A DNA stretch of 64,000 nucleotides. It comes from Leucoraja ocellata (taxonomy: Eukaryota). The notes below the pieces were generated by a model. That model ran no database searches, had not been told where the DNA came from, and saw nothing but the letters and a program-made list of their open reading frames with translations. Shown piece by piece: positions 271-38,600 of the stretch (positions are counted from its first letter, which is position 1; each line of letters begins with the position of its first letter). The position numbers and the translations under genes were made by a program. The DNA lies in the NCBI GenBank assembly GCA_036785375.1, contig JAWMAR010000265.1, positions 372,001-436,000 on the forward strand, in the 5' to 3' direction.

Positions 271-1789
271 ATTAACATTTCCCTTTCCAGTTCTACCACC
301 GAATGGGAACGACATATTCTTTCCTTTCTGATTTCCTGCCCAACTCCAGACTCCTATCTTGCCCTTCTGCTATTGATCATCTGGAAAATTCCCTCCCCAA
401 TCCCCTCTCTTCTTTCAGATCTTTGACTAACCCCCAAATGTTCTGACGTCCCTTTCTTTGTCAAAATATCATTCAATGAACCAGCTTGAAACAGTTACTA
501 AAATAATATGCAATATAATTGCAACATGTTGTTTCCGCATACCTGTGATCTAGCATAGTAGAATTGGTCAAGGCATAGGAGAGTGTCAGTAGAGGATAAT
601 TGGCTTAGTGTACAATTAGAGACGGAGGGCTTTATGGCCTTCCAGGTGGGGGATGGAGGTGCAGTGTGCCTGAACATCCATAGTAAAGATGAGGGAACTG
701 GGTCTGAAAAATGGAGTAATTACCCTCATTGAACTTTTGTTTTTTTTCTGAACCAGGTAGCTCCTTAGACACAAGTAGTTCTTTCTCTTTGAAGCCTTGT
801 TTTATGCCTTGTACAATAATATCACTGTATTTCACAATGTGTGCACCTGTGCTCTGTGCAAGACTGCTAGTGGCTGTGTAGGTGTAGCTGTGTATCTGGG
901 CACCACTGGGTTCTCCTTGTTCTGCAAAGAGGGCGGGTAAGTATGTGAATGTATGCTCTATTGTTAATAAATACACAATTATGTATGTGCATGTTGTTTA
1001 GACGAGGATGTTTGTATAACATGTGGAATTCAGACACTACATGGTTTAAAAATACATGCAGGATTTCCAGCTAAATTTTAATTTTCATTAGTCCTAGTAT
1101 ATATTAATCAACTATGAACTAGCAAACTGAGCACAATTGGTTACATCCTTTGCTCCATGTGACAATTTGATCTTTAAATGAATGGGCAACATTGAGTTAT
1201 ACAGCATTGAGTAATCTAAACCTCAAATTCCTACATACAGTATATTATTTTCCATGTCATGTTATTTACAACCCAATCTGTAAAACCATGTGCTCCATTT
1301 TCATTTGCACCTTTCTTTCTTCTTTAAGCTTGCAGACATTCTTTATGCTATAATAGGATGTTTCCATATAATTTTTAGATATTTTCCTTCAAGATTAATT
1401 GACCCTACTACTTTTCGTACATTACTAATGTCCTATAAGTACTGTCCACATTATTGTGTTAATGAGCGCACAAGGCAGAATGTTAAAGTAATCTCTTTAG
1501 TGCCATTTAAATGCTTCACCAAAAAGAGTGGAGCTAACAAAGTGAATGGGAACGGTGACATTTTAAACTTTTGGTACGTGCATGAGGCATATTTAAGTTT
1601 TCTTACAAAAGGCGTTTTAGGAATGGATTATACCTTTTGATTGTCACCAATGAAATTAAATGTTGAAAAGAAATCACCTATTTCAATCCCATACAATTAA
1701 GTTTGAGTCCATCAACAAGAGAAAAATCAAATTTAAGGGATTTTATAATAGTTGCTGACTGCAGTGACCCACATGCAGGGAATAGCATG

Positions 1790-2090
1790 TGTAAGAAGGG
1801 GCTACAGATGCTGGTTTACACCAAAGATAGACCCCACCCTAGTCTTCTTGTATATTTCACCGATTGTAGCCAGTTGTTATCACCTCGTCCCCAGCCAACA
1901 ATAGACCATTGTGGGCTCCACCTTTCCTGAGTCGTCGATGCAGGCTCTGCTTGTTCTGTACCTTCCCCTACCTCTAGTATCCCTCTCCCCGCCTCTCTGA
2001 TGAAGGGTCTAAACCCGAAATGTCACCTGTTCCTTATCTCCAGAGATACTGCCTGACCTGCTGAGTTACTCCAGCACTTTGTGTCTATCC
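1790..2090 (+). mobile_element. Penelope-derived short element with hammerhead-like core (1997-2025)
   Basis: Shares sequence with the 3' end of the element at 2660-3800; CTGATGAAGGGTCTAAACCCGAAATGTCA. Confidence 0.75.
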
Positions 2091-2659: not shown

Positions 2660-3800
2660 TTGACTTTGATATCTTCATCACAGAAGATAGACTATCAACC
2701 TCCATCACAGGAGATAGACAATCGACTGACATCTATTACAAAACATACCAACCCCACCAGCTATCTAGACTAAACTTCTTCCCACCCAGTCTCCTGCCAA
2801 GACTATCCCCTGCTCCCAATTCCTCATCTGCGCCCAAGATGAGGTGTATTGTACATCTGAGATGCCCTCATTCGTCAGGGAACGGGGCTTCCCTCTTCCA
2901 TCATTAGTGAGGAAGCCCTCACTCGGTTCTCCTCAGTATCCTGCAGCTCCCCCTCCACTTAGTCGTAACCGGGACAGAGTCCCTCTAGTCCTCGCCTTTC
3001 ACCCCGTCAGCCGTTGTATACAACACATAATCCCCTGACATTTTCGCCACCTCCAACGGGATTCCACCACTAGTCGCATCTTCCAATCTCCACCTCTTTC
3101 CGCTTTCCGCAGAGCCCGTTCCCTCCGCAACTCCCATGTCAATTTGTTCCTTCACACCCAAACCACCCCTTCCCCAGATACTTTCCCTGCGACTGCAGGA
3201 GATGAAACGCCTGTCCTATACCTTCTCCCTCGACTCTGTCCAAGGACCACGACAGTCCTTTCAGGTGAGGCAGAGGTTCACTTGCACCTCCTCCAACCTC
3301 ATCGACTGCATCCACTCTGCTAGGCGTGGACTCCAATTTATCGGCAAGACCAAGCGCACGACCGCAGTCCGCCTTGGCCTACTCGATCTCCTGGTTGCTA
3401 ACTCCCCCTCCCATTCCCACACTAACCTTTCTGTCCTGGGCCTCCTCCATTGTCAGAGTGAGGCCAAATGGGCCTCTTACAACCCAACGGTACGAATATT
3501 GATATTTCTAACTGCGTAACCCTTGTTTTCCCCCTCTCTCTCTGTCTCTCCACCACCCTAGTCAGCCAACGTTTCACTGTCTTCCTGCTTAGTTTCACTG
3601 TTTTTATCCACACATTATCACCTTCTCTACAGCAAACAATGGACCATTGTGGGCTCCACTTTTCCTTGATCATCGGTTCTGGCTGATGTTCTTCTCATAC
3701 ATTTAATTCATTTGTTCTTTGTACCTATCATACCTCTAGTTTCCCTCTCCCCGGCTTTCAGCCTGAAGAAGGATCTCAACCCGAAATGTCACCTATTCCT
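2660..3800 (+). mobile_element. Decayed Penelope-like retroelement (RT C-terminus, GIY-YIG endonuclease, 3' repeat)
   Basis: FQVRQRFTCTSSNLIDCI...QFIGKTKR motif; homologous to 40195-41300. Confidence 0.85.
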
Positions 3801-4407
3801 TCCACCAACCAAACAGTATGGAGACTTATCTCAATATCTTCCATCCCCTTCACATACCCCCACTCCCTAGCCTTCAATTCCAAACCACTTGATCTCAGCT
3901 AGACGTTGCAAAAGCAACAAAAAAAATCCATAAACCCTGGAAATCTGAAATAAAACCAAAGAATGCCAGGGGAATCTCTGCAAACCAGACAGCATATATG
4001 GAGAGAGGAACAGAGTCAATGACCTTTCATCGGAATCGCTATTTATGGCTCAATCACTCGCACACAAAATAAAAAGTCATGGACATGCAACGTTAACTCA
4101 GATATTACACGATTCGTTCAATGGTGGTGACCTTGGTATGATAACTGACCTCAATTTGTGCTTCGGACAGCACCATGTACAATCTCTTTAGATTTCCATT
4201 ACATCACCCAAGCTGAGTTCCACCACGTATGAGAAATGCAGGTATCTGACAGTTATAGGGCTTGAGGTGGTTATCGAGGGATGAGGCGATGAGGGTGTAA
4301 TTTTAAATCAAAGTATTGCTTAAAAGGACTGGAGACTGGAGGCCATAAAGCACCGATGGAATTGGTGAAGAAAACAAATGCAAGTTATAAGGGCAGTTTC
4401 AGTTAAT

Positions 4408-4497
4408 AGACACAAAAAGCTGGAGTAACTCAGTGGGACAGGCAGCATCTCTGGAGAGAAGGAATGGGTGATGCTTCGAGGTCGAGACCCTTCCACA
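4408..4497 (-). mobile_element. Half copy of Penelope-derived terminal repeat
   Basis: agacacaaaaagctggagtaactcag...ggtcgagacccttc arm shared with other copies. Confidence 0.7.
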
Positions 4498-4504
4498 GAC
4501 CACA

Positions 4505-7920: not shown

Positions 7921-8677
7921 CCTAATACATAATACAACATGCATTTAATAACTTACAAATGTGACCTATTTGCCATGTCTTTTGTATAATGACAAGTGAA
8001 ATATAGTTATGATCTTTTGAAAAAAAAACATTACATCTGTTACATTAATAAATGGAGTTGGTTGTTTTCCTGTAAATATCTGCATCTTACCGCGTAACAG
8101 ATATACTAATGTTTGGATTAGACAGCCTGTTTTAGCCTTGTAGTTTCATTGCAACCAGTTAAAGGGAATTCTCATAATGAGTTCACCCATTGCAAGTCAG
8201 TAAACAAAGAATGGCCAAATGTTTGACATCACTGATTAGGACCAAGCTTTTCAAAGCTCGATGCATATTTCTGAAGCCTCACAGAACATTAATTTTTAAT
8301 GATATCACTCTCACTGCTCCATTAAAAGATGGTCGAGAAAAGATTTTAACATAATCAATCACATAGTTAGCTACAAAATATTAACTGGAACAGTGGCCTT
8401 TTGCATAAAACATAACATATAAAACCCTCCAACATAGGACTGCAAGTAATTAAAGTTGAATATGTAATCACTTCTGTTCATGCACTAGAATTTTTTGACA
8501 TGACCAACAAGGTGCAAAATACTTTGCTGGCCTATATATAGATTGTAGACAGAAGACAGATATAGATTATAGAATGAAGCCTGATATTCCTGTCATGCTT
8601 TCATAATAAAAAAAGTGAACAAAATACTTCTTTGTGCCTGTCGATAAAACTAACGTATATGCGTCACAGATGCTTAC

Positions 8678-8841
8678 ATATGTTGCTGTGGAGAACATCC
8701 TCTGCTAATATTCCCATTGGTGTCGAGGTGATCCAGCGAACCATTGAGGTCTTCATGGGCTGCCAGCAGTAAGCCACTGGAGGTGGTGTTTATCAGGTTT
8801 GGGTTACTAAGTAAAGGTAAACTGCTCTCTGCAAGTGCAGC
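8678..8841 (-). CDS. FOXP2: FOXP2 exon 16 ([54 protein letters not shown])
   Basis: 164 nt, ttttggcag| acceptor, AT|gtaagc donor, phase 0-2; terminal exon not found in 1-8677. Confidence 0.96.
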
Positions 8842-10309
8842 CTGCCAAAACAGAAGCACAAAATCATCGATGAGCCCGATTGTTTCATTTTAGAGTTTCA
8901 TAAGGATTGCTTTGTGAAAAGCATTAATGACACATTACTGTAAATATTCACCAAATATTGAAATTTTCATTTGTTATTAAATATTAAAAGTCCCTAAAAT
9001 GAAATTTGATCTAATTTTATTGAAAATCAACCATATTTTACAAATGACATAAATAGGTCAACTTCATAGTTACTTTGCAGAAACAACTCAAGTTTACACC
9101 TCGCAGGTTAAATAGCTGAAAAGCATATTTTGTTGAGAGCTCTTAATACTATTGTAACCAGATTGAAAGAACATCTCGTTTTTAAAAGTAAAATGATCCA
9201 GTACCCATGCTACTTTTCCAATCTTTGTAATCCAACTGCATAATCTTATATCAATAGTTCCAAGTGTAATTCATTCACAAAATTACAGGGCTTTCCATGT
9301 TCTTGCTGATAGCTTTCATCCAGATTTGTATTTAATTGCAATTCATGGTGCTTCAGGTTAAGATAATGTTCTTCATAATGTCAGCTGAGAGATACGAGAA
9401 CTACATTTCCATTTTTTTATAAAGTAACATGAAATTTAGTCAAGTGCCCAATTTATTTAGAAGGATAAAAATCACCCCACCTCTAAACTCAGGATAGATC
9501 CAACACATTTTCTTGCTAAACAATATATTGGAGCACACAAACAAAAACCAAGTTATTGGGTCAAGATTAGAAGCTGCTAGCTTAACATTGTGTTTAGAAT
9601 GTCAGTATGTTATTTAAAAAAACCCACTATTGTTAATCTATCCAATAGCTGGCTCACAATACTCTATGGGTGACAAAAGTTCATTTTTTCCCCCATTTGT
9701 TAAGCTGCATTGACCCTTTCATCCTGATTTTACTTATCTTAAATTTCTCATTTCATAGCTCCGAGTTCATTATTGTCCTTATCGCAGTGGCCCATTCTTT
9801 ATTTCCATTCCTAAGTCACCACATTCATTTATATTGGCACTCCACATCTGTCACATTTACATCCAATTAGAAGGCAAGTTAATGAATCAGAAGGAGCATC
9901 AATGAATTATTTTGGTCTATACCTGTACAACCCTGCTGGGGCAGAGCTGAATGTTTCGATCCGCCTTGGCAGATACCAGCACAATATTGCTATTTATCTC
10001 TTTATTAAAGAACCAATTAGCAATGTCATACATTGGATTGCAGAATGTATACATGAAAACCTGAACATTTCTTAACCATCTTTCACATTAATCCTCCTTT
10101 GGGAATCTTCTATTTGGACAAGAGTGTCTTTGGCACTCCGAGTAATAGAATTTTGGGAAACCTACGAGTTCCTTGCCACATTCACAAGGATATTACCAAT
10201 GTATTTTCAAAATATTTTTAATTATACTTCACTTTATTGTCGATAAATAATGTTTTGATAGACGGAGGTGTTAACACTGATCCTTATAAATATAAGGTGA
10301 ATTAGTATC

Positions 10310-11420
10310 AGGAGTAGGTGAAATCACCTTCAAACCTGCACTGCCATTCGTCATGCTAATCGGCGACTTTCCACCTTATCTCCATGTTTTTGCGCTCCCT
10401 TAATTCCCCAAATGTCCACAAATCTATTAACCACGATTTGGAATAAATTCAACGGCTGCACCACCAGCACCCAACAAGGTCAGGAATTGCTAAGATTCAT
10501 CACCCCCTGAGTGAGGACATTTCTCCTCATCTCAGTGCTGAGTGGGTTACTCCTCACTCTGAGATAGTGACACCTGGCTTCTCTGCCACCAGAATCCTCC
10601 TTCCCACGTCAATTCTGTCAAGAAGTCATCATTCGAAATGTCACTTTTCCATTTCTACCACAGATGCTGCCCGACCTGCTGAGTTACTCCAGCACTTTGT
10701 TTATATTTCTGTGCAAATTTTGTACGTTTCAACAACATCCCTCCTCATTCTTCAAATTCTAGAGCATAGTGGTGCGGGCGATACAATTTCCTCTCACACA
10801 GCAATCTCACTATCCCAGGAACCTGTGTGGTGAATCTTCATTGCAAAACCTCTGTGGATCATGTAGCTAGTCTTGAAGCCTCTATACATTCTCCTCAATT
10901 TTCACAAAACTCTCCACTCAGTTCTGTATCATCATCAAACTTTAAAGTATTACATTGGTTTCACAGTCAGATCATTGACAGAGATGATGAACAGCTGGAG
11001 AATGAGCACTGATCCATGAGATACCCTAGTAGTCTCTAAATGGCAACTTGATAAGGGCACATTAATTCCCCCTCTATACTCTATTTGGTCACCAGCTCCC
11101 TATATAAGCAATTATATTATTCCACCCCCCCCCCCACCCCAATATCATACACTCCTCAATGAGATCTTCTGAAAATCTAAATACACCACCTCCACTGGTT
11201 CTTTATTTTCCGTTCAAATGACCAGAGTCCACAAAGAACTCTATTAAATTAGTCAAATACATTTATTTTATAAATCCATGCTGGCTCTGAATACGATCTA
11301 TTCTTTTCTCATGTTATGTTTTCACATCCTTCATTGTAGATGACTGAATTTTCCCCATTGCTACTGCCCGGTTAACAGGTTAGAAGTTTGCCGTTTCCTT
11401 TCTCCTTATATTCTTAAATA
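10310..11420 (-). mobile_element. Old CR1 fragment interrupted by a Penelope-derived arm (about 10630-10700)
   Basis: gattcatcaccccctgagtgaggacatttctcctcatctc CR1 signature; gatgctgcccgacctgctgagttactccagc arm. Confidence 0.55.
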
Positions 11421-11949
11421 TGCAACCCTTCACCATGTTTAAGCTCAGTTTTAGCCACAGACTTTTAAGGAGCAATGCACTGTGATTGCAATAAGACGTG
11501 GAAAGAGTTGACCAATCACCCATACACTAGATTCAAATGATTCTTGCCACACACCCATCAGCTTCCCAAGGATCCTACCACACTCCTACAATAGGGTCAC
11601 CTTGCAGTTTACAACCTGAATACAATAGAGAAAAGTCCTGGGGGTACATGGAGGAGACCCGTGCGGTGACAGGGTATCAGGCAAGCTCCACACTGACAAT
11701 GCCAGAGGTGAGGATTGATCCTGGATTGTTGGAGCTCTGTTATTGATGTGTATTTTGAGACTTCTGCTGGCTGCACACATGCCACCCCACCTCAAACGTG
11801 TGTGAGATTTGTAACCATTGAGGTTCAACCTTCCATTTATCTGATGAATTTCGATGATGACATATACAAGAGCAAAACTGGTTATTCATATTTTGTCTAA
11901 TAATATATTCAAAATGATAATATGCTAATCAATAAATAATTGATTAGTA

Positions 11950-12082
11950 CAGGTGTCAGGTGTTATAAGAAGAAGGCAGGAGAATGGGGTTAAGAGGGGA
12001 AGATAGATCAGCCATTATTGAATGGTGGAGTAGACTTGATGGGCCGAATGGTCTAATTCTGCTCCTAAACCTATGAACATGA
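11950..12082 (+). mobile_element. CR1 3' UTR/tail fragment
   Basis: gatcagccattattgaatggtggagtagacttgatgggccgaatgg matches the tail of 41715-42868. Confidence 0.75.
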
Positions 12083-14115
12083 AATCTTACATACTTGGCT
12101 AATAAATCATTTTTATCTTTAAACAATTGCAAATCATTTCGAACCAGTTTCCACACAGTATCCTGTCCTGTCAAGGTAACCATCCAAGTTCCTGTAAAGC
12201 AGTCAGTGTGAATTGTCACTCTATGGTCAAATGATGGCAGAATCAAGCTTGCCATTACTTGACCAGAGAGTGACAAATCACACTGACTGTTGCGACACAA
12301 GTCAATCTAAGCTCAGAGCTGGATAGATGTAGGTGTTCACCCTGCCAGCCACATTGGGTGAATTAAGAATTGGATGAAATAACTGACATTGAAACTTTCT
12401 TCCAATCTATATGATGAAGGCAGATATGATTTCAATACTTTTTTTCCCTGCTTCCATTAATACTTTGGCATTTCAAACTCTCGACATTATTGCTTACTTT
12501 TAGATTAATATGCAAGTGAATGGGTACCCTGATTTTATCAGGCTAAAATACTAAATTAATGAATTTGGAAACAAAAATGGATTTTGGGACCAGGATAAAA
12601 TGATTTCTGCTCTTTATGTCAAGATAAATTAATTGAGTTTTTTTATAGTTTTAATTATAAGCCAATTTGTACTATTTTATCAGCATATTTTAAGAACTCA
12701 GGTACACACAAAACATTAATACATTGTCCCCCAAGCATTTCTATATCGCGGTTGATAAATAGCTTTGCAATCTGTATTTCTCAATTATGCATTAAATTAT
12801 TCCCATGATTTACCTAAACTTCTTTAAAATAAACTGGCAAGCAGTGAATTTAAATGATTATTTAATCAGTTGGGCTTATGTTTGTATGTAATCAAAGAAT
12901 TATACATTGGAGCCATTTAAAATTCAAACCATATTTTTGTGACATTTTACTGGTGATCGTACAGTGAGAGACACACATTGTCAAGTGTTAAGCCGTTTTT
13001 ATTCTGTTCTATATGAAAAAAAAATCCTACTCCTCTTATAAATTCCATCAAATCCTGCTATCAATTTTTTCTCCGTCTGAAGGCTTCATCCTGTGGATCT
13101 CTCCATGGAAGCCATCAATACCAATCTTTTTGACCCACCATGAGCCAAATCTGACCAGTGAATAGAAAGCTATTTCCAATTAGCCTTCTCTTCTTTTTCC
13201 AGATACGGGACTAAAACTAGTTGTACGGTTGAATATTAGTCAAGGCATAGGTTCTAAAATTCACATCTGAATTACCAACATCATTACAGCACAAGTTTTA
13301 GAGACATTTTCATCTCAATTTACATTAAAAATGGAAATATGGTGCGCTAAAATGTTACCAATTTAATGAGTAATGATATCAATAGTACGACTATTGATAT
13401 GCATGAGATGAACAGTTTAAAATCGTAGCTTTGTTTTATCTGTAAGGGTTGGTGTAATGGGTTACTGAACACCTATAATGAGAAGAGAAAAGTGAACATT
13501 AGCAGCTGCTCTTTGAATACAAGGTTTGACTAGCAGCAGAAGCAAGTTCGAAATGCAAACCAATTTGTTTCCACTTCTAAGCTGGGCTTGTGCTGAATGG
13601 TTTAACCCCAGTGGCAATTCCCTGCTGACTGTTCTTTAACTCCAAAGATCCTGATTCATGTTCTAACAAAGCATCTCCTTGACTTTAAAGAATGACCAAA
13701 ACTTTACCTCGAAATAAAAGTCATGACATTTTGCCTCTTGTGCATAAAAATTATATATTGTAATTAAACTTTAAAATTTTTGCCATGAGCGCCTCATTCC
13801 CTGGCCCTATGATGTGAAATCATTTATGACAGCTTAGATAAATATTAATGCATATCCACATGCATTTGCAGAGGCTGTCATCAATCTAGCATTTGATACA
13901 AAAGTGATATTCCAAACTATGCCACAGGGTGTCTCTCTTGCTTTCCAACCACTTCAGAAATATGTTAAATCTCAATTTATAATTTAAAAGAAAAGATTAA
14001 AAGTATGAAAAAAATCAAGGTTAAAACACAGAAATTAGGATACATACAAAAATATCATTATTGTCAAGGCATTTGACAGCCACAGTACACATTTCATTGA
14101 AAACGGGGCAACCTA

Positions 14116-14280
<165 letters not shown>

Positions 14281-15301
14281 TTAGACTGACTACAAGACAC
14301 TGCTATTTTTCCCAAATGTAAAGTGAAACCAAGAGGTCATATTGATACGCAGAAATATTTCCAGCACATTTCAGCTCCTGATACAAAACATAGGACCGAG
14401 AAATACCAAATACTAAATTCCTTCTCATTTGTTTTTCCCATCTTTCATAGATGTTTTCCCTTCTTTCAAATTAGTTGGCTAAAGATGCTCTGAATGAGCT
14501 TTCAAGCATGTTTTATTAGTGATAATTACTCGAGCAAGTGCTGAATAAATGCAAAATATAAACCCCAAAGTACATCATCATCAAGATGAATGGGCCAGTT
14601 GCCTAACTAAGCGGTTTCTCCACAAAGAAGTGTTTTGCTTCTCTTAATACACCTGTGGCCTCTTTATATTATTATACAAGGCTATTAATTATACAGAACA
14701 AGGAGAAAGAAATATTAACCAACCCAATCATTCTGATGGAGAATTAATTTGCAAAGCAGTGAAATAAGCAAGCAGGAGGTCTCAGTGCAAGAAATGCTCA
14801 TCAATACCCTCATCAGGCAAATATTTCTGAGGTCAGTCTCTGAGTGCAGTGCCACTATTAAATTCCTCCCCATCGACAAGCCCATGGATCTAAACTCACT
14901 TTACATTGTAATACAGTACTGCAATGATTAGTGCAAATCAGTGGAAAGGACAGGCAGGTATATAAACAATAGCCAAGCAGAGACCAGAGGAACCAAATGG
15001 GCAGAATAAAAAAGGATATGTGTATGATTTAAAAGAGAAGTAATGAATTTTTAAAAGCACACACATCCATAACAGCAGGTTTTGATTTCAGATATCACAC
15101 AAGTAATTTGACGTAGATTTTTCGGAAAAGAAATGAGGAGCCAGATGCAGGAAAACAGCCAGTGATCCTTTACCTATCAAAGTGCACGGAATGTAGGATC
15201 ACCAAAGTGCACCCCTCTACCTATGATGTTCACCCTGCAGCATTCACGGCTCTTGTGAAAGGTTGCAGCTGGAACAGGAGGAATGGTGCAACCACGAGTT
15301 A

Positions 15302-15454
<153 letters not shown>

Positions 15455-16794
15455 CTAAAGTAAACAAAGAGGGGAAAAGAGCATTCCAACTTTTGTAAAA
15501 TAAAACCAAGGAGCAAATGAACAGCAATGTGACAAGAAACATGCTGAAATCAAATCCCTTTCGTCTTTAACTCTTTATATCTCAGTTTGACAAGCGATTC
15601 CTGCTACTAACCTACAAATTTGTCAATTATCTTTTTGTAACTTATCAAGCATTTTGTTTTTAATTACAGAAAAATGAGATTTTCAATGGGCATACTAAGA
15701 AACACTGGCAATTATAGTTCCGTTTTTAAAGTATTTTAAAATTTATCTACATTGTTCAGAAATTATACATTTTAAACATTAGAAAACCCAATGCCATTAA
15801 TATACATATTAGTTCTCCTTTTGAGCTGGCTGTAGGCTATGTACGTTGAACAGCAGCGTGAATAGCAAAACTGTACACCAATATCTGCCATTTGAACTGT
15901 CTATGATAACAAAGCTCTCAAAGCTATTTTAATAATAGCAATGTCAGAACCTTCTTTGCCTGCTGCCGGTCTAAATTGCAATATCTGTACAAATTACAGT
16001 ATCTTTGAAAATGCCAGTACAATTAGGTCGGGTCTGTTGTGTCCCTGATCAGCTCTTTGGGAAGGAGGGGGTGGCAGTTGGGGTAGTTAGGAATGATTGT
16101 GCAGTCCACTGAAATGACTGAACAGACCATCTTCTACATATAGTGTGAAAGGCAAGCAAATCAACTTGCAGTGCTAGTGCCACATATGTTACGGTCAAAC
16201 AAAGCCTAATGCAAATAAGCTTAAAAATCTCACTCTCTCTTCAAAACTAGAATAAGCAAACGATAAAGTTTGTTTGTGGTCTGCCAAGTTAACTGACATT
16301 TTACAAGAATGCCATACAGTTCAATGCAAATGCAATAGGTTCAAATAATATGATAATTAAACCACCTATTGTTAATTATTGCTTTTTGGCTGAATTTGGT
16401 ATAAAAAAAATATTCTCGCTGAATTGTTGATTTACAGCCACCAAATGTATTTACTGCTGAAATGTCTATAAATCTTACATATCGCCCAAGATCGCCCATA
16501 TGGGCTCAGTGGGAACATGATAAAATAGTAATTATTTGTCAACACACATTTTATTATTTCCATTAAATTTGATGTAATTGCTAATGTCCAATTTTTTACA
16601 AGATAATGAAAAATCTAAGCAGGAGACTTGATCATGAATGCTATTCTAATGCTACAATTAATAACTTGGGACAAATATGATCAGACTATTAAGATGCTCT
16701 ATAATATTTTCTACTTTTGTTTCTATGTATTGGGTTTGCTTTGAGAAAAGGATCCTGTAAAAAGAGAAGCATAAGCGGATCTTGCATCTGACCT

Positions 16795-16934
16795 NNNNNN
16801 NNNNNNNNNNNNNNNNNNNNNNNNNNNNNNNNNNNNNNNNNNNNNNNNNNNNNNNNNNNNNNNNNNNNNNNNNNNNNNNNNNNNNNNNNNNNNNNNNNNN
16901 NNNNNNNNNNNNNNNNNNNNNNNNNNNNNNNNNN
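16795..16934. other. N run (140 nt)
   Basis: Seen directly. Confidence 1.
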
Positions 16935-17691
16935 TCCCGAGCTGCAGTGATGAGACCAAGCTGAGATATTAAATCATCTTTCATTTCTGCATTTTCCCCC
17001 CAGTAAACCAGAGGACAAAACAATCAGAAAGTGTTACGATAATGAGTAATATATTGAACTGGAAATAAATGGTATTGAACATTTTAAAGTCTATATTTCA
17101 ATCATTTTGGATTGTTTCTCTACATCTAATTTAAAATTTACTCCACATTTGCAGTAATCGTATTCAGTTAAAAACCCATGAAATAACTAATAATTAAAAA
17201 ACAAAATACGCAGCATAATTTGGAAATTGGACGTGCTATTAGTCTTTTGCAGACATCCAGGTCTCTGATGGTCTCAGAATAATCTGCATTCCAAATCCAA
17301 ATTAATTCAGTTCAGTAAATCTGGTACTCAAATGTTTAATATGCTGATGAGCACAGCAAAAATGCTTGTAATGTAGATATGGTTTTGCCACATCTATTCT
17401 TCCCCACTACAAACATTTCCACTGATTATGCCAAATGACTTGTGGCTAACTGCTGTTTCATTCAGTTTTAAAATGAAAATTTGAAGTGCTTTTGCGATGT
17501 ACTGCCTGTCTTTATCTGTTGAACTACTCCCTTTCTGAGAGAAAAATACAGGGGGGAAAGGATACTGAGAGCACCCAATTTTGCTTCTTGTAAGTGCAAG
17601 ATAATGGATTTGTTTAGACAGGGATATGAATGAATTCTTTATCTCAGTAAATAAACTGTGTTTCTGTTCTGACAGGATAATATTCACTTAC

Positions 17692-17746
17692 TTTCCTTTA
17701 GTTCCAGCTGAGTGACCACAGCCCCGACTCCTGTGGCAGCTTCAGT
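17692..17746 (-). other. FOXP2: Candidate 55-nt frameshifting (poison) cassette exon in FOXP2 intron 13
   Basis: cacacag|ACTGAAGCT...AAAGGAAA|gtaagt; open in the exon 13 frame (TEAATGVGAVVTQLELKE), then PTC at 15438-15440. Confidence 0.65.
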
Positions 17747-18163
17747 CTGTGTGATGAGGTATGATGTGTACAAAAGGCACAGACCAAGACAAAACCTACA
17801 GCCTCCATTTGTTGCACAAGGCAAACAGCCATTTTTCAAACTAATTAGCCAATAATATGTGAAAGTAAAAAGTAATACGAAGCTACTAACAAAGGTGTTG
17901 ATGATTGAGTGCTCACACTGTAATTAGTGTGTCAGGCACTCACATCTCCACCAAGGCAAACCTATTAATTGCACTAAATTAGAAAACGATATCAGAGGCA
18001 AAATTATTCTTTCCACTTGTCATTTTGAGAAAGGGAATTCATTCTATTCAACAGCCAATTTGAAAAAGAGGGAAGTCTGATACTAATCTGTTTGTGTCAA
18101 GTAAATAAATGTCTTCAGTGCTATCTCCCAATACTGTGCCATGCTTCTGTAAAGTGGAGGTTA

Positions 18164-18295
<132 letters not shown>

Positions 18296-18392
18296 TCACA
18301 TTAAATAATTGTTTGGTAACTAAATAGAATGACACTTTTGCTGGAAACATTATTGAGGTAGTAATTAATTTTAAGCAGGCAGTACGTATTCA

Positions 18393-18503
<111 letters not shown>

Positions 18504-18912
18504 TCAAGTAAGCAGGGCAATGTCCTGATGTAGAAGGATTGACAATTCACAATCAGTGCAAATTATTTATTTTGACGTTGTTTATTTTAGCATAACTTTG
18601 CCAGTAGTAAATTAAACAAAAAACAACACCTTGTCCCCCTTTCTACCCTTCCCATCTACTTAGTCCTTCCATGTGGCTTAGAAGCTGTTCTGGAGCAAGC
18701 ATCCTTTTAATAACAGCTAGGGGGGTGCACAGACTTCTCTATAGACACCAAAACTGGCATGTGAATTATCCAAACACAGACAGGATCACTCCAGGTCACT
18801 CTCCCCTCCACCACTTGGGGAGTGATATTGGCCTAGAAATGAGACAATGCCAAATCAGGGTGCAATCAGTTGCATTGACCACCATAAACTATCCTGCATT
18901 AATGTAGAGTTA

Positions 18913-19126
18913 TGCCCGTCCCACTTAGGAAACCTGAACGGAAACCTCTGAAAACGTTGCGCCCCACCCAAGGTTTCCGTGCAGTTCCCGGAGCTTGCAG
19001 GTGGTTGCAGGTGGTGGAAGCAGGTAGGGAGACTGACAAAAACATCCGGGATCCGTGTGGAAAACTTGGGTGGGGCGCAAAGTCTCCAGTGGTTTCCGTT
19101 CAGGTTTCCTAAGTGGGACAGGGGTA
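18913..19126. mobile_element. MITE with about 65-bp terminal inverted repeats (PIF/Harbinger-like ends)
   Basis: gtcccacttaggaaacctgaacggaaacc...ccccacccaag is mirrored at 19055-19120. Confidence 0.85.
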
Positions 19127-19354
19127 TTATAAGCATCAGCCAGATGCCAGTTAGAGTTGGGTGGCAAGTATGACTGGCTGCAACTGGATGGAAAGGGGCA
19201 ACTCAGGACAATACAGGCACAAGAAAGGGAGAGGGGGTTTTGAGGATCATCAGCAGATGTAACAGAAATCCAGGATAGTGCCTGCTCCACCCGCCTCTGC
19301 GGAAGACAAATATAAATAATTACCGGTGGTGAATTATTTTGAGTATTGCTGGTC

Positions 19355-19858
19355 ATTCCATTACAGGAAAGACGTGAAGGCTTTGGAGAGGGTGTAGAGA
19401 AGGTTTACCAGAATGCTGCCCATATTAGAAGGTTTCAACTGCAGGGAGAGGTTGGATAGACTTGGATTGTTTTCTCTGGAAAGTCGAGGTTGAGGGGAAA
19501 CATGATAGTTATATTAAATGATGAGAGGCATAGATAGGTTAGACAGTTGGAACCTTTTTTCTAGGGTGGAAATGTCCAACACAAGAAGGCATAGCTATAA
19601 AACGAGAAGGGGAAAGTTGAATGGAGATATGCGGGCCAAGTTTGTTTTTACACAGAAGGTGGTGGAGCCTGGAACATTGCACGGGTGGTAGCAGAGGCAG
19701 GTAGGATAGTGGAGTTTAAGAGGCTTTTAGATAGGCATGTGGAAATGCTGGGAATATAGGGATTTGGATCACGTACAGGCAAGTGTGATCAGTTTAACTT
19801 AGCATCATGTTCGCTCAACCATTGTGTGCTTAAGGGTCCATTCCTGTGCTATACTGTT
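19355..19858 (+). mobile_element. CR1 LINE 3' fragment
   Basis: ggattgttttctctggaaagtcgaggttgaggggaaacatgatag, then CR1-type tail. Confidence 0.8.
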
Positions 19859-20254
19859 TAATGAAAAGAATCAGGCTCTTTAAGGATTGGTGTTACAGCA
19901 ACACTGAAAATGTGTTCCTGCCACATGCCGAGTCAATCGTGAACACGTGTAATGAAACTATACAAAACTGGCCTCAAACAGCCATGATGCCTCATTCTCC
20001 TTCTTCAGGCAGGACCACAGACGAGCTTTAAACATTATAGGAAACGGCACACCTCCACTCTGAAACCAGCATACAAATCGCATGCCATATTAGATCCACA
20101 GGCAGCTGCATTATGCCTGTAAATTGGGACTAGTAACATCACATTTCTAGGCCATTGTAAAATCTCTCTCTCTCTCTCTATGCCTCTCACTGGAGCAGCT
20201 CAACTGAAAACTAATGAAACAAAACTAACTGATGCAGGTGGTTTCAAGTGTCAA

Positions 20255-20322
20255 GCAGTGCTGGGATTTGAACTCTCAGCCATCTGGATGGGAGCCAAGT
20301 GCTCAGCCACTTAAGCTACTGA
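20255..20322 (-). mobile_element. Degenerate tRNA-derived SINE head
   Basis: Minus strand TAGCTTAAGTGG (A-box-like) and GAGTTCAAATCC (B-box-like) at tRNA spacing. Confidence 0.5.
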
Positions 20323-20876
20323 ACTGAAAATATTTTTCAGTCTATGCAAAAAATATTGACAAAATGCTTATTGCATGGTTCTTTACAATTATCCTGTTAC
20401 CATTCATGATGTGTTAAAAATTGGGATCCAAGAATACAATTTCTGTTGAAAGCACAGGGCAGGATAATGTCATTTTTAAACTGAGTTGAACTGAAATTTT
20501 ATGTTACTAAATCATCAACATATGCAGATTTTTAAAAATCTGTTTGATGTCCGGTTTGAAATCATTTTTATTTAATGTACATTATATGCAATTTCTTCAA
20601 GAAGTATTCAAATGGCAATATCATTCTACCCTTTCTTACTCTCTCACACACACCCCAAATATCGGAAAGCAGTTTTCAAATAAAGGTGTTCCATATAATT
20701 TGATCTGTGGGCAATGGTTTTAACCTGGTTTAAGTTCAATCTACTTCTGGCAACAAAGGGGATATTATCTCTTTATCCAATATTCAAAACATATTGAGTA
20801 CTTCAATTAAATGAAAAAATATTAAAGCTCTTTGTAAGACAAATACTCATTCTGCTACTGGTGCTTAGAATCCTAC

Positions 20877-21078
20877 CTGATGAAATGGGAATGTTGTACT
20901 TATCACCATGTCTTCTTCGAATTGGTCCCACATTGTGCACGTTGGCTGGAGTGATTACGGAGGGTCCTTGCGTGACAGGGGTGACTGGGGCTGTTGGTGT
21001 GGTGGGAGTCTGAGGTAAACTCTGTGGGGATGTCTCTGAAATGTTCTTAGACATTGTGACACTCGACACCAGATTCAG
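20877..21078 (-). CDS. FOXP2: FOXP2 exon 11 ([19 protein letters not shown]...[14 protein letters not shown]); completes PLNLV CtBP-binding motif
   Basis: 202 nt, long pyrimidine tract then ctcag|, G|gtagga donor, phase 0-1. Confidence 0.97.
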
Positions 21079-23088
21079 CTGAGGAGGCCCAAGAGGAGGA
21101 GTGGGGAAAAGCAGAGACAGGAGAAAGAAGGCTTTAACAGGTTTGACAAACGAGAGTGGTTTCACTTCTACAGCTGTGTTGCCACTAATAAGCAGCAAAG
21201 GAAGCAGCCAATCTCAGCTAATTACAGGATGAAATTGTATCATAAGAACTCTAATTAGAGGATGCTGTTAGAGATTATCTAATGATCTGATCCAACATTA
21301 CTCAGGCCCAACTCATTCTAGTTTATCCCAACTGTCTCTCCCTAATAAAAGCGGCTACCAAAGTTCCAGGCTTGTGGCTGTCTATTCATAAGGGCTGAAA
21401 AACAAAGCAGATTATCAAAGGATCCAGTTACTGCAAAGGGGACTGGAAATAGTTGCTGCTACTCCACTACTGCTGCTGCAGTTCTTGCATCGTCCCAAAT
21501 CTCAGCTGAGAAGCTGCAGCCAGCTGGAAAATGTTACACTGACCTTTGCTCTCACTGCTAATTTGGTGGAATGGTAATGACATTACTACATATTCAAACA
21601 AAATTGTCTTAATTGCAAATTAGCCAGAGGAGGCTGAAATTTTTCAAATTAAATATGATTGTAGATGGCGAGTGGAATGAAATTTCTTCACTAACAATCA
21701 TTTGTGGCATGTGTTAGCAAATATAATGAAATGTCAAGTTTGCCAATTCCTCTGGAAGTATCATTTTCAATTTATGATTACAGTGTCAGTTATTGCTGAT
21801 GTACCCTGGAATATGGGTGTCAGGGAAGAAAAAGGAAAAGAAGGAAAAAATGATGCACATTATTTAACAGTGTGTCCTTCACCTACTTCTACCAATAAAA
21901 TTCCATATCCATTAATGAAAAAAAATTAATGTCACCTCTTTTATATTTACCACACATCCATTGTCATAAAGAGCATCTAATTAAGAAAATTTACACTCAC
22001 CCACTGTGAAAAGATTTCTGCCAAATTATTAAGTGATGCTCTTAATGGCTAATTTGTAGTCATTTTCAATCTATTCTGGAGGATAATTTCTCGATTTGGG
22101 AAAACTGTAATGTTATCTTGTCATTGCACAAAACTAGAAAATCAGGAATTGTGCAGGAAATTGCCACTGACTAAAGTAATTCAGGCACAGCTGTTGTTCC
22201 AAATATTATGTATTCATCTATAGAAAAACACCTTTTTCATTTGGTGTAGATTATGCATTTAACATTGATTGATCTTACTTTGAGGATTTGTTTTACATGT
22301 TTAGAGAGTAGAAAAATTTGTTAAAGAAACAAAAATTAACATATGCCAGCTAATTGTTCTGCATTCTTGGGTAGGAGCCAGGAGAAGCTCACTGGCAGTC
22401 TAATAACAGCGCCTGGCACCCCTGAAGGCAATCCCTAGTGCATCTGTTCCCAATAAACCACAAACTGTTTTATTCTACTGCTACCCACAGCTTGCAGCCT
22501 GACGTGTGAAATCCACTTATGTTTATATATAAATTTCACGGTGACTCAAATACTGTAACTATCCTAATAAATAAACAAGACCGTGTTAAAAAATTATAAA
22601 AAAATCATACCACTTTACAATTCATTTACATATTGCATTCAAGGAAACATTTTACAAAGCTTCAACGCATTCATGTAATAAAAAAACTAATAATTTTCTT
22701 ATTTGAAATTTGATTGTAAGTCTACTTGCTTAATGGGTTTCTGGATAAATCAGCTATTTGATTAGGATTTTTTTTTTAAATTTAAATCTCAAATTAACTA
22801 GCTTGTGAAAATTACATAAATACTGTTCAAAATAATATTCACAATTCTGTACACCAAGATCATTTTCAATTATAAAAGTTCATAAAATCACCATCATTAA
22901 AAAAAATGCAGTGACTTATCTACTGTAGCTGATTATGTTTACAGGGTTATGATAATTTATTTTATCTTAGAGTAATAACAAGCAGAACATGTTTCTGGAT
23001 GGCACTCATGTTCTGATAAAATAGAATTTATTAAAGCTAAATAAGGAAAAGCATGTAAAAGCTGGGATGAGCACTTAGCTACCTCAAC

Positions 23089-23252
23089 NNNNNNNNNNNN
23101 NNNNNNNNNNNNNNNNNNNNNNNNNNNNNNNNNNNNNNNNNNNNNNNNNNNNNNNNNNNNNNNNNNNNNNNNNNNNNNNNNNNNNNNNNNNNNNNNNNNN
23201 NNNNNNNNNNNNNNNNNNNNNNNNNNNNNNNNNNNNNNNNNNNNNNNNNNNN
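23089..23252. other. N run (164 nt)
   Basis: Seen directly. Confidence 1.
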
Positions 23253-24329
23253 TGTTCATGTGCTGATAGCTGTTAAGGGTGTAGTGATGAACCAACAGAG
23301 CTCATTTTGCCTTGGTAATAAATTCATACTATTAATATTTATCAAATGTGTGGGCTGTCTCAACTGAGCCACTGCATATGAGGACATAAATCAGTACTAT
23401 CATATCAATTATGGAGCTCTTTTTGTGCAGTATATAAATTTTAGAGTTCTTTTTGTATACTGGTCCCCTTTTCAACCATTCAAAGGCTAACAGTGCCATG
23501 TAATACATTGTAGAGAGCACAAGTGTCCAGTGGGAAGAGGAAAAGACTGGTTTCAATTCGACTTGCTCATCTAAGGATTCCCTATTAATTACCCATCATC
23601 AAATGCAATTAGACATTCTTTCATGTGTGGTTTATGTAATGTAATACTTGAGTTACATTATTCAAGTTCAGTTTTAGAATATAAGCTGAAGATCCTTTAT
23701 TAGTGCAGATCTTACCACACTGTTGGACTTTTACAAATTTACTAATTGAATAATTTATTTATAAAGAATGAGCTGCAGATTCCTGATGGATTTACTCAAT
23801 AAGAATTTTATCTTTAAACTTTATGTACTGGTGAATGCAATATGGAATAAGAAGTGATCAGAGTATTATTCATTTAAAATAAATGAATAAAGCAGTGTAT
23901 TAAACCAAGTTGTCTTTCAACAACATTGCTCCTCCCCCATTTTAATTAAGCTGCAACAAAATTCTTAATACAAATTAGAAATTGGGGCTATTAATTTCCC
24001 AAGTAATTTGTCTGTCTGGGGATTCGAACTCACAACCAGAAGGTCACGAGTTGGATTTCCTAAGGTGTTCGTCACCTGAATACAATTTCCTTAGTCGAGG
24101 TGTTATCAGTTTTCAGTTGAGCTAAATGATGCTGTAGTGCAGAGAGCAATGTATGTGATATCAGTCAGAAGGGGGTCAGCACTGCCTAGTTGCATCTCCT
24201 GTTAGTCAATAACAAAGCACTACTTGTCATCGTCATGAGAAAGCTCTTGCTCTCGACTATCCCTATCCTCACATGCTCACGGACTTGTTAGCAACAAGCA
24301 TTCTCCAAGGGATAAGGGGAAAAGACATA

Positions 24330-24627
24330 TATGTGTGTGTGTGTGCGTGTACGTGTACGTGTGTGGGCGTGTGGGCCTGTGCATATGTGTGGGCCTGTGT
24401 GTGTGTGCGCGTGCGTGTGTGCACGTGTGTGTGTGTGCGTGTGTGGCCTGTGTGGGTGAGGGCCTGTGTGTGTGCGCCTGTGTGTGCGCATATGTGCGCA
24501 CGTGCGTGAGTGTGTGTGTGCGCATGTGTGCGTGTGTGCGCGTGCCGTGTGTGCGTGCGCGTGTGTGTGGGCCTGTGTGTGTGCGCTCGTGTGTGTGTGT
24601 GTGGGCCCGTGCGTGTGTGCGCGTGTA
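24330..24627. repeat. Imperfect (GT/GC)n microsatellite, about 300 bp
   Basis: Alternating purine-pyrimidine tract with recurring gtgggcct interruptions; source of four spurious ORFs. Confidence 0.95.
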
Positions 24628-25095
24628 TAAAACAGTTCAGTTTGGCAGAACAAGTGCAGTTTTGATTACAGGAATTGAAACAATATTATGTGTGTTTCTC
24701 CCCTAATTGTCCAACACAGACTTGCAGTGGAATGAGCGACCCTTCTCACCAAGCCAATTTTACCATATAGTGTTTAACTGATGCTGAACTTCTTTAGGCA
24801 AGGTTGGGAGTGGTGGAGGAGTTTAAATTGACACTTGAACATCTCTGAAAGTAACAAAGCATTTTCAAAGTTTAAAGATCAAAGAATCATGTTTTGCATC
24901 CAATCTAACTTATACTAAACTAACATACTAAAGGCACAAAATTCATCATGATGGTTTTAATTTTATTTCATTTATCAAGCAAGGTATTCACAACAAGAAC
25001 TTTCATTTTGACAGTTCATACCGGGTATGCTTTAAAATAAAATGCTTTAGATACTATTTCGGCAGGCAGTAAATTCTAGTACTTCACCTTTAAGT

Positions 25096-25164
25096 AACTC
25101 CATTCAATGTCTTTCCAGTAATGACATAAGAACTCCATTCAATGCTTTGCCAGTAATGACATAG
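25096..25164. repeat. Tandem duplication, about 35 bp x2
   Basis: aactccattcaatgtctttccagtaatgacata / aactccattcaatgctttgccagtaatgacata. Confidence 0.9.
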
Positions 25165-25504
25165 CTATATAGCAGTGCAATTGATGCCCAATAAAATTCT
25201 CTTCGCTAGCAAAGTGTATTTGTAAATCCATCAAAATAAAATGTTCTAACAATTCAGCAGTCATCTCAAGTCAGTTATTTGTCACAAGTGAAGTATATTA
25301 CTTTGTCAAAGTAGAATGTAGCATGTCTATTTTATTTCAACAAAAAGCTATCTACTAACATTGTTCATAACCACACGTAATGCTTAAGTTTTGGTATAAC
25401 CATTCTATATGGAAACTGTTGAGACAATTGTTTATTTTTATGGTATGTAATATTTATTATATGCTGTGATCTCTGTTCAATGAATTGTTGAATATTAAAC
25501 TTAC

Positions 25505-25588
25505 AGGTTTCGGACATGGCTTAGGATCAGAAGGTCTCATATGGAGGTGGGTCATCATTGCCTGAAGACGTTCACGTTCTTTAGAAAG
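25505..25588 (-). CDS. FOXP2: FOXP2 exon 10 ([28 protein letters not shown]), leucine zipper
   Basis: 84 nt, aacag| acceptor, CCT|gtaagt donor, phase 0-0. Confidence 0.97.
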
Positions 25589-26870
25589 CTGTTATTGAAC
25601 AAACAGAAACTAAATCACTTGCAAAATACTTTTAAAATGTTTGTGATGGCATGAATCTTATTTCTCTAAGTTTGTTCTAAAGAAATAGACAACTTCATAT
25701 GAAGCACTCATCGTTTAAGCTTCCCTTGTGTTAAAAGGTCACAGAAAAACAAATAACACTTCATCTTTTTGTCAATAGAAGAATTTAGGTCATATATGTA
25801 GTGACAGTAACAAGTTACCAAGAAGACAAATAAGTAGGCCCTTGGTGTTCTGTTAAACTCCCGTGGACACTGTGAGGAATGGAACAAAGCCAGCAGCTGG
25901 AAAAAAGTGAAGGGTTCTCAAAACACTGTGCCTGCCAAAATCATCTGCATGCTTCATCCTTTCCCTCTGAGGTCCAGTTACTGCCCCCTACAATCTGCCA
26001 TCATCAATCTAATTCAATAGAGTGACAGAGACCTGGCAGAGTCTTGCCCTTATCTCCGTCACAGAGTCTGGGTCCACATTGCACTGGGTCTCATTACAAA
26101 CAACGGACTTTATACCAAGCGATTGTTTCTATACTCGGCGAGAAGGAAACTTATTAACTGGCCACCTAGAATGCAGGATCATTGAGAGAAGATTGTTTCC
26201 TTGTGTTTTAAAATTATATATTGCTCAGTCAGCTAAAATTATAGCTAAGATCTTATTTCTTCAAATCGCAAATAAAACCATGAAATTTAAGGAGAGGAAT
26301 AAACAATATATAAAACAAAGGTCAGTTTTACTGAAAATAGAAAGCCCTTTCATTCCTGGCAAACATTATATGGAGGTGTACTAAGATACTAGCTGGAAGA
26401 GGTACCTGTATATAATATGAAAGAGGAGCTTGTACATGGTTTAGAAAGGGGGAATGGAAAGTGATTACCCAATATTGGTTTCTGATATATTCACACTGTT
26501 AGGTGGAGTCTGGAAAAAAGGTTTTGTGGACACTTTCTTGGCAATTAAATAATCCATTCTTCAGAAGATTTGAACAGGTTAGGATTTTATTGAAGTGACT
26601 CGGTGGTGGTAGTGGGTGTGGGAAGGGGGAATGTAGAGTTACTTTAAAGTAATCTTTTATTACATTATGATTTATGGTCTAACCAAGCTATTAATCCACA
26701 ATTGAATCTGAAATCCCAGCAATTAATTTCCCTACATTTTCATGAAAAATATTATTGTTTATTAAATGTAGCACGGGAATACATAAACCAGGAAAGATTG
26801 AAGAAAGACAGAAAACAGATAGATGGAAGTGGTATTGTTAAATGCTTAGTGTGTTCAACCTACTGTATCA

Positions 26871-26990
<120 letters not shown>

Positions 26991-28613: not shown

Positions 28614-28844
28614 AAGATAGACACGAAAAACTGAGGGACCTCAGCGGGTCAGGCAGCATATCTGGAGAAAAGGAATAGGCCTTCTTCAGAAGGGTCTCGA
28701 CCCAAAATGTCAACTATTCCTTTTCTCCAGAGATGCTGCCTGACCCGCTGAGTTACTCCAGCGTTTTGTGTCTATCTTTTGTGAACTAGTTTTGGTCATT
28801 TTAAGATGCTCAGTTTAAACCAGCATCTGCTGTTCCTTCCTACA
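28614..28844. mobile_element. Palindromic Penelope-derived element with 16-bp target-site duplication
   Basis: About 65-bp inverted arms; caaaactagttcacaa at 28598-28613 and 28845-28860. Confidence 0.85.
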
Positions 28845-35948: not shown

Positions 35949-36080
<132 letters not shown>

Positions 36081-36145
36081 TTAATCTCAAAAGCCATAAT
36101 CGTTGGAGGCTGCTAGCGCCTGTCAGGTTGCGATCAGTGACAAAT

Positions 36146-36161
36146 AGGTCAAAACAGGTCA
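36146..36161 (+). promoter_or_regulatory. Perfect DR4 nuclear-receptor motif
   Basis: AGGTCA aaac AGGTCA in non-repetitive DNA, about 90 nt from the exon 8 acceptor; function untested. Confidence 0.45.
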
Positions 36162-37930: not shown

Positions 37931-38159
37931 AAGGTCCAAAGTTGTGTATAAATGTTTAAATCTCTTGGCCCAGGCTAAATGAACGTGACATTCACAGGAA
38001 GTTTCAGGCAATGGAAGGGAGTTTATTTGTTAATTTAGACACTGTAGACACTGCAAGCACTCAAGTAGCTATTTCTGATATGTTTTAAGATATTTAAAAC
38101 AAAGCTAATGAGTATGGCTGTGGTGACAGATCTAGGAGATTGTCCAGGGAAACAAAATA

Positions 38160-38352: not shown

Positions 38353-38600
38353 CAGGGAAAGAAAATGATAGAATTAAAATAAATGTATAATTGTCATGAT
38401 AATTACAGTTAGCTTTAATATTATAATAAATTTACCCCAAATATTAACTTGTTAAAAGAAAGCTGTAAAGCATATCTAATGTTGTTAGTATGAATTTCAA
38501 AGTAATATGCAACTTTGGCAAAAATCCTATACAATTCAGTTTTCAGCTGTATAACAATCTAAAGTCTGCATCTCTGAATTCCCAATGATGTTTGAAATTT

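Follow-up and report, generated by a model that had tools for sequence, protein, structure and literature searches.

A predicted minimal hammerhead ribozyme in the terminal repeats of a putative Neptune-type Penelope-like element, and hairpins that are probably its very short insertions, around FOXP2 in a cartilaginous fish

Results

The locus and its repeat copies

The 64-kb stretch of DNA analyzed here (the window) carries on its minus strand the coding exons of FOXP2, with coordinates descending from about 54400 to 8677. Among these exons, the one at 20875-21087 has its closest counterpart in Callorhinchus milii FOXP2 (90% identity), which points to a cartilaginous fish as the host. This mapping did not find the last coding exon, and intronic status is limited to repeats above 8677.

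The first-pass annotation had flagged nine places in which a hammerhead-like motif recurs. According to our comparison within the window, all nine belong to one repeat family, but two of the three copies listed as partial (4460-4492 and 55681-55706) lie on the minus strand, and most copies are broken. The cores start at 1997, 3763, 38267, 38719 and 28684 on the plus strand and at 40327, 46685, 4498 and 55710 on the minus strand; another three sense copies, all decayed, start at 10615 (plus), 27824 (minus) and about 40067 (minus). The density of the family is about one insertion per 5-6 kb. Its copies, which derive from the terminal repeat (pLTR) of a Penelope-like element (PLE), are given below on a ruler in which C3 of the hammerhead is +1 and the predicted cut lies between +28 and +29.

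1788..2089, plus strand: PLE insertion; inverted tail piece 1788-1832 (+87 to +131), then a 5'-truncated pLTR 1833-2089 ending at +93, core 1997-2024; 8-bp target duplication 1777-1784 / 2093-2100 (3.4% of controls as good)
2711..3802, plus strand: decayed PLE 3' part; remnants coding for thumb and GIY-YIG at 2711-3503 (tblastn), pyrimidine-rich spacer, core 3763-3790, ends at +40
4406..4500, minus strand: solo short copy spanning -2 to +92; core damaged, target duplication at background
10614..10706, plus strand: old and decayed, with about 82% likeness to the majority sequence of the window copies
27736..27890: old head-to-head hairpin; sense arm 27736-27827 on the minus strand, inverted arm 27823-27888 on the plus strand; no tail, no significant duplication; the inverted arm crosses the predicted cut site
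28614..28846: hairpin insertion; inverted arm 28614-28690 (+95 to -1, lacking +11 to +29), sense arm 28684-28778, inverted copy of about 26 left-flank bases, then tail 28810-28846; perfect 16-bp duplication 28598-28613 / 28845-28860
38160..38352: hairpin insertion; inverted arm and tail 38160-38263 (lacking +26 to +32), sense arm 38266-38353 with core 38267, which has no GUC; 14-bp duplication 38145-38158 / 38353-38366 with 1 mismatch
38600..38810: hairpin insertion; inverted arm and tail 38600-38690, the arm starting at +37; sense arm with the best-kept core, 38719-38746; repeated pieces of the -6 to +4 palindrome at the junction; 15-bp duplication 38586-38600 / 38811-38825 with 2 mismatches
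39978..40064, minus strand: old decayed short copy
40198..41307, minus strand: longest PLE remnant; 41307-40439 holds what is left of the thumb, a Cys-rich linker and GIY-YIG; a pyrimidine tract and CAG precede the CpG-decayed core 40327-40300; tail 40233-40198
46583..47058, minus strand: PLE copy truncated on its 5' side; 47057-46914 is where the GIY-YIG frame ends, followed by a spacer and a damaged core at 46685; ends at +96; 11-bp duplication 46565-46575 / 47059-47069
55581..55713, minus strand: solo short copy spanning -2 to +131 with tail; core damaged; perfect 12-bp duplication 55569-55580 / 55714-55725, which fixes the 5' end
8677..54405, minus strand: FOXP2 coding exons; repeats above 8677 are intronic

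The analysis covers 12 sense copies and five inverted arms, all within the window. A profile built from 14 window pieces, which match it by construction, gave 18 matches at E<0.01 and none in the reversed window: the 12 sense arms, four inverted arms and two weak matches that were omitted. The fifth inverted piece (1788-1832) and the separate tail at 28810-28846 were found outside the profile search. The two weak matches (6138-6184 and 3974-4033) and four more above the threshold are excluded from every count. The weakly matching stretches 6081-6184 (E=7e-5) and 3974-4033 (E=0.007) may be more diverged relatives of the pLTR, perhaps from an older subfamily.

The hammerhead motif

The majority sequence of the window copies reads CUGANGA at +1 to +7, followed by one extra base, a 4-bp stem II with a 4-base loop (+9 to +20) and GAAA; at +24 to +28 stands a self-complementary ACGU ending in a GUC triplet. 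Judged by these letters, the motif is a predicted minimal type-I hammerhead in the pLTR of a Neptune-type PLE, and the minimal core named in the first-pass annotation is present in the majority, with its 4-bp stem II and ACGU palindrome, and in the three copies with all core letters. The annotation had the motif end the GIY-YIG-bearing elements; instead, it stands 65-100 bases upstream of the element's 3' end. A generic minimal-hammerhead pattern matched three times (1997, 3763 and 38719) against 0.06 expected, and at least three matches were reached in 0/100 shuffles; as members of one repeat family, the three count as about one independent event. Stronger support comes from the pairing of stem II, from ACGU as a palindrome and from the place of the motif in the PLE end, as published.

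Core letters are kept in 3/12 copies and the whole ribozyme in none of the 12. The copy at 38267 has lost its GUC triplet, that at 46685 one core purine, and those at 28684 and 55710 both CUGA and G12; even the best-kept copy (38719) has lost the first pair of stem I. The CpG of ACGU is mutated in 10/12 copies and intact in two, and CpG sites as a whole are changed in 36 of 109 cells. Outside CpG, mismatches number 8/113 in the core against 70/669 in the rest (p=0.31), a comparison with little power in neutrally decaying copies, and conservation of the core above the rest of the element, which the first-pass annotation had named as a test, is not seen.

Stem II is the sole helix predicted by RNAalifold, with 83% of cells paired. 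Stem I in the majority has two pairs and a mismatch, with 57% of cells paired over three positions, and does not reach the published 4-5 bp, in keeping with the caveat first raised about its shortness. The suggested check of stem II covariation gave no signal above shuffles: its score was reached by 132/500 shuffles and the percentage paired by 48/500 in these window copies, whose neutral decay leaves low power. Nor was any Rfam hammerhead model, another proposed check, among the 13, 3 and 1 matches at E up to 10 for the window and the two best copies. In silico, the hammerhead dimer has -12.7 kcal/mol (stem I uncounted) against -21.1 kcal/mol for the best alternative dimer. The inverted arm of a hairpin was also considered as a long stem I and rejected, as spacers or lost core letters break the geometry in 4/4 hairpins.

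One hairpin gave sub-threshold Rfam matches to microRNAs. Such matches were also obtained for a 90-bp inverted repeat at 12200-12289 that is unrelated to the PLE family.

The parent element

In three copies the end of a GIY-YIG frame lies about 110, 230 and 260 bp upstream of the core, as expected of the Penelope origin proposed at the outset, and a fourth long copy has a spacer in common with these three. With the proteins P0002-P0014 as tblastn queries, the window remnants match, in the same order, the thumb and GIY-YIG regions of homologs in which RVT_1 is followed by GIY-YIG. The Pfam GIY-YIG match on the window piece (the 40198..41307 remnant) has E=0.0027, below the curated cut-off. In the homologs the order is reverse transcriptase (RT), CX4CxxC, GIY-YIG, and the Cys motif stands upstream of GIY-YIG in 5/8 homologs examined (P0003, P0006, P0008, P0009 and P0014); P0002 has lost one Cys, the Cys stretch is absent from P0004 and P0013, and in the window copies the motif is partly decayed. 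A CX2-5CxxC motif before a C-terminal GIY-YIG is described as a mark of Neptune and Nematis among PLEs with a C-terminal endonuclease (PMC8557442). It is this motif, not a tree, that suggests the assignment to Neptune. No full-length element, RT core or 5' pLTR was found within the 64-kb window.

A pyrimidine tract and a CAG ending at -2 occur in 3/4 long copies. The majority sequence of the window copies has a sole ATG, at +50, in a frame that ends inside the tail. The spacers between the GIY-YIG stop and the ribozyme (3494-3761, 46687-46906 and 40329-40420) are variable in length and sequence and pyrimidine-rich, with CAG ends at -2; in two of the three, a donor-like word stands at the GIY-YIG stop codon, and a retained pLTR intron is possible. 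The longest PLE remnant has, about 400 bp from its 5' end, a neighbor of another kind: the remnant of a LINE-type reverse transcriptase (RVT_1, E=3e-13; 41695-42770, plus strand), presumably CR1-like.

Ends and target duplications

The 3' ends of the sense arms fall at +90 to +96 in 9/12 copies and at +131 in 2/12; the remaining copy is cut at +40. There are two discrete classes of 3' end, +90 to +96 or +127 to +131, and the approximately 35 bases between them constitute the PLE tail, which has been tied to two internal RT start sites (PMC11167929). At the other side, 8/12 sense arms are short, and six of these eight start at -6 to -1. This 5' edge of the ribozyme coincides with a small palindrome, TCAG-N-CTGA, and, in 3/4 long copies, with the pyrimidine tract and CAG. 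A spliced template is one candidate cause of the 5' cluster, but the letters before -1 in the short copies mismatch the sequence before the candidate donor at the GIY-YIG stop; no clean spliced joint occurs among 15 listed contig joints. The two solo short copies (55713 and 4501) have G at -3 where the long copies have A, possibly an untemplated or cap-derived base (n=2).

Target duplications exceed 386 random controls in 6/12 units, with lengths of 8, 11, 12, 14, 15 and 16 bp, and are at background in the other six by the same controls. Their AT content is 71%, against 61% in the window. The fixed-length duplications of a transposase are not seen; the variable 8-16 bp agree with target-primed reverse transcription, in line with the proposed mobilization by the Penelope RT and GIY-YIG.

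Head-to-head hairpins

Four head-to-head hairpins of 155-233 bp, with arms of 57-77 aligned positions, lie in the window, and the 1788 insertion has a like design with a longer sense part. The free-standing hairpins described in the first-pass annotation therefore exist at about the sizes given, and duplications above background flank 3/4 of them, but the one at 27736 has no significant duplication. Their centres differ in 4/4 cases. A tail is present at one end only in 4/5 two-armed insertions and at both ends in none of the five. Hairpin 38160 and the longer copy at 1788 have three letters in common (+5, +96 and +100). All 12 sense arms carry sequence upstream of the predicted cut, and their template was therefore an uncut RNA.

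Two insertions bear on how the second arm was made. In that at 28614, positions 28779-28804 repeat about 26 left-flank bases in inverted orientation, target duplication included, which looks like fold-back synthesis of the cDNA past its own priming site. In hairpin 38600 the arms have 1 and 6 differences from the majority over 57 positions. The copied flank favors snap-back, and the unequal arms favor two templates.

In 3/5 inverted arms the sequence picks up again shortly 3' of the predicted cut, at +30, +33 and +37, whereas 0/12 sense arms start there (p=0.015 for a contrast chosen after the data had been seen).

Contigs of sequencing runs

The 300-bp piece 40181-40480 was compared with contigs of four out of 23 listed public runs of related organisms, and all figures are taken from the listed rows. 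Contigs on the piece number 169078 (X1), 148013 (X3) and 157509 (X5), and 13996 in a fourth run, guessed to be RNA; because contig coverage of the 300-bp piece varies with similarity to one diverged copy, it was not used as a truncation gradient. Contig majorities in X1 restore letters that the window copy has lost (80% at +9, 82% at +18, 56% at +20 and 51% at +26), and the consensus of listed contigs behind +33 has the same core as the window majority. Among the listed variants, loop II changes while the stem is kept, with one side of one pair alone altered; a second listed variant (behind +41) has a core-breaking A at core position 12 in X1, X3 and X5 and is intact only in X15.

Mixed A-rich letters occur at +84 and +91 to +96 among the listed loose ends, and tail-bearing ends at +101; both classes of 3' end recur in the contigs. 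Among the listed back-going joints the 3' ends are fixed (+90 to +96) and the starts variable, as expected of partial tandems. There is no pile-up at the cut among the listed contig ends, and contigs cannot show RNA ends; likewise, the listed joints hold no countable set of head-to-head junctions. Contigs in three or four runs join the tail end, 40198 to 40233-40248, to an opposite-strand copy starting at +95, +91 or +80. This tail-to-tail arrangement is absent from the window copies.

A 20-base piece gave 4, 10 and 2 loci in metagenome, viral and prokaryote collections; the 14 inspected match over those 20 bases only, and the matches were set aside as chance. Thirteen of the metagenome and viral loci (L002-L014) have nearly identical flanks and represent one unrelated microbial or phage sequence, not the PLE repeat.

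Discussion

Comparison with known elements

Cervera and de la Pena (2014, PMC4209133) described minimal hammerheads in metazoan PLEs, where they lie in the pLTR; the elements include Xena, Poseidon and Neptune from fishes, among which we noted no cartilaginous fish by name. The present motif has the same type-I core, extra base between positions 9 and 10.1, G10.1-C11.1 pair, palindromic 15.2-16.2 without loop 3 and pLTR location, and the same occurrence mostly as scattered single truncated copies. It differs in its stems, with 4 bp in stem II and 2-3 bp in stem I against 7-8 and 4-5 bp in the Schistosoma motifs; a 2-bp helix I is, however, reported for D. virilis in the same work. In the Penelope of Drosophila virilis, the end of the pLTR intron abuts the 5' end of helix I (PMC2377424; PMC4209133); similarly, the pyrimidine tract and CAG ending at -2 in 3/4 long copies here would mark a candidate intron.

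The insertions likewise follow those described for canonical endonuclease-bearing (EN+) PLEs (PMC3846280, PMC8557442, PMC8969392): 5' truncation, an adjacent inverted 5'-truncated pLTR, solo pLTRs, a tail of 30-40 bp at one end, palindromes at the inverted junction and, in Neptune, CX2-5CxxC before the C-terminal GIY-YIG (PMC8557442). Against the 8-10 bp reported for canonical elements, the duplications here reach 16 bp; the truncation is extreme, the whole insert being a hairpin of 155-233 bp, and one insert has copied about 26 flank bases in inverted orientation. The Poseidon element PAc of Anolis carolinensis, as described in PMC11167929, is alike in that a tail separates its two 3' ends, a hammerhead lies just upstream of them, the targets are AT-rich and the template is an uncut RNA, but it belongs to a different clade, and its ORF starts at stem II, whereas the sole majority ATG is at +50 here. 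With non-LTR retrozymes (PMC7229834; bioRxiv 10.64898/2026.07.22.740005) the hairpins have in common a non-coding nature, a type-I hammerhead, a relation to the pLTR and long duplications. Retrozymes, in contrast, are described as head-to-tail tandems in which every unit has its ribozyme, as a rule a canonical and efficient one, and as makers of circular RNA; here each insert is solo or head-to-head, and its single ribozyme is minimal and in most cases broken.

Origin of the hairpins and short copies

We consider it likely that the hairpins are independent, very short but otherwise ordinary PLE insertions, and that the family is the pLTR of an abundant Neptune-type PLE. They are read as independent insertions because their centres differ and because diagnostic letters are common to a hairpin and a longer PLE copy; in PLEs, an inverted pLTR with 5' truncation typically lies alongside, the tail is on one side and the junction has palindromes (PMC3846280, PMC8557442). 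This reading is based on the 12 sense and five inverted arms of one window. By such a route, the element's GIY-YIG would nick both strands of AT-rich DNA 8-16 bp apart, and the RT would begin within the RNA, near +95 or +131, as has been demonstrated in vitro with the anole PLE. Many cDNAs would stop or jump at the 5' edge of the ribozyme (-6 to -1), giving solo copies of 95-135 bp. Where both nicks prime, or the cDNA snaps back, the ends may join at palindromes (TCAG-N-CTGA at -5 to +4, stem II or ACGU), leaving a hairpin with the ribozyme in its loop. The ribozyme itself would probably act only in the transcript of the source element, as a dimer and perhaps with the element's protein.

The first-pass annotation had instead taken the hairpins for a separate, ribozyme-processed and retrozyme-like family, a view that is not supported, given the uncut templates, the differing centres, the lack of tandem units in the window and the published PLE pattern. 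A related possibility, to which we give a rather low probability, is a short non-autonomous family (SINE- or retrozyme-like, about 135 bases from -2 to +131) with source loci of its own, served in trans by the Neptune RT and GIY-YIG, the hairpins being double-primed insertions. The clustering of short sense arms with starts at -6 to -1 would be natural for such a source, as would the exact bounding of 55581-55713 by a 12-bp duplication and a tail variant that three short copies have and all long copies lack; the letters -5 to +2, moreover, resemble an initiator. The 2026 preprint (bioRxiv 10.64898/2026.07.22.740005) also argues for a descent of retrozymes from pLTRs and records them in one chondrichthyan. 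Yet internal RT initiation near the 5' end of an ordinary PLE mRNA would yield like short products, the sense arms contain the uncut site, and the hairpin that groups by three letters with a longer copy speaks against a short family, as do the differing centres. In the window, 0/10 tandem-repeat rows cover a core, and the nearest same-strand cores are in separate insertions. That the hairpins are MITEs moved by a DNA transposase is most improbable: a size of 155-233 bp and long inverted arms would suit a MITE, but the duplications of 14, 15 and 16 bp, the unequal ends and one-sided tail would not, and the arms are the same in kind as the PLE end. At 18915-19122 the window does contain what is probably a true MITE, of a different family: it is 208 bp long, its long terminal inverted repeats have arms of 73% identity, and the pLTR profile does not match it.

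Does the ribozyme cut?

A question apart from the origin of the hairpins, and compatible with their being independent short PLE insertions, is that of activity. The motif may be hammerhead-shaped but non-cutting here, kept as a protein-binding RNA structure or merely vestigial; we hold this to be unlikely. It agrees with the two pairs and mismatch of stem I, with the more stable alternative dimer in silico, with covariation that does not exceed shuffles and with the lack of an end pile-up among the listed contig ends; moreover, the anole PLE is reported to insert without cleavage, no reads ending at the site (PMC11167929), and 8/9 Xenopus dimers to have failed to cut in vitro (bioRxiv 10.64898/2026.07.22.740005). 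On the other hand, all core letters, the extra base and the 15.2-16.2 palindrome fit the published PLE motif (PMC4209133), the contig majorities restore letters lost by the window copy, loop II varies among the listed variants with the stem kept, and the anole ribozyme did cut after its protein was added (PMC11167929). At the opposite pole, the inverted arms that resume just beyond the predicted site might record cleavage in vivo, one RNA of a two-RNA insertion complex being cut at +28/+29 and serving as template for the inverted arm, which would stop or jump there, and its uncut partner serving for the sense arm as far as the 5' edge of the ribozyme. We think this improbable, since deletions near the centre of a palindrome are expected anyway, the inverted arm of one old hairpin (27736) crosses the cut site, and two of the three arms in question carry sequence upstream of the cut. 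If true, it would make the role of the PLE hammerhead testable from DNA alone, with >100,000 contigs per run on the repeat.

Copies within FOXP2

With FOXP2 mapped on the minus strand, the minus-strand copies above 8677 are indeed in the sense of its pre-mRNA, as first annotated. Cutting of this pre-mRNA by them is unlikely because 0/6 minus-strand copies keep both core and triplet, and we regard the copies as decaying passengers. Depletion of intact cores on the sense strand, a further check that had been suggested, is not significant (0/6 sense against 3/6 antisense, p=0.18; inside the gene 0/5 against 1/4, p=0.44).

Conclusions

As it stands, our analysis adds a very abundant repeat of cartilaginous fish to those with this motif and this insertion pattern, both of them already known. 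We found no paper on this repeat family in a literature search that left out subscription journals and Repbase/Dfam; the supplements of PMC4209133 and of the 2026 preprint may include it. One practical consequence is that PLE hairpins can be misfiled as MITEs or as microRNA precursors. The role of the PLE hammerhead in vivo and the origin of the inverted pLTR with its tail are treated as open in PMC4209133, PMC11167929 and PMC3846280. The insertions of this family are dense in the window, many of them being short and readable from end to end between their target duplications, and the counting of their junctions could settle both questions.
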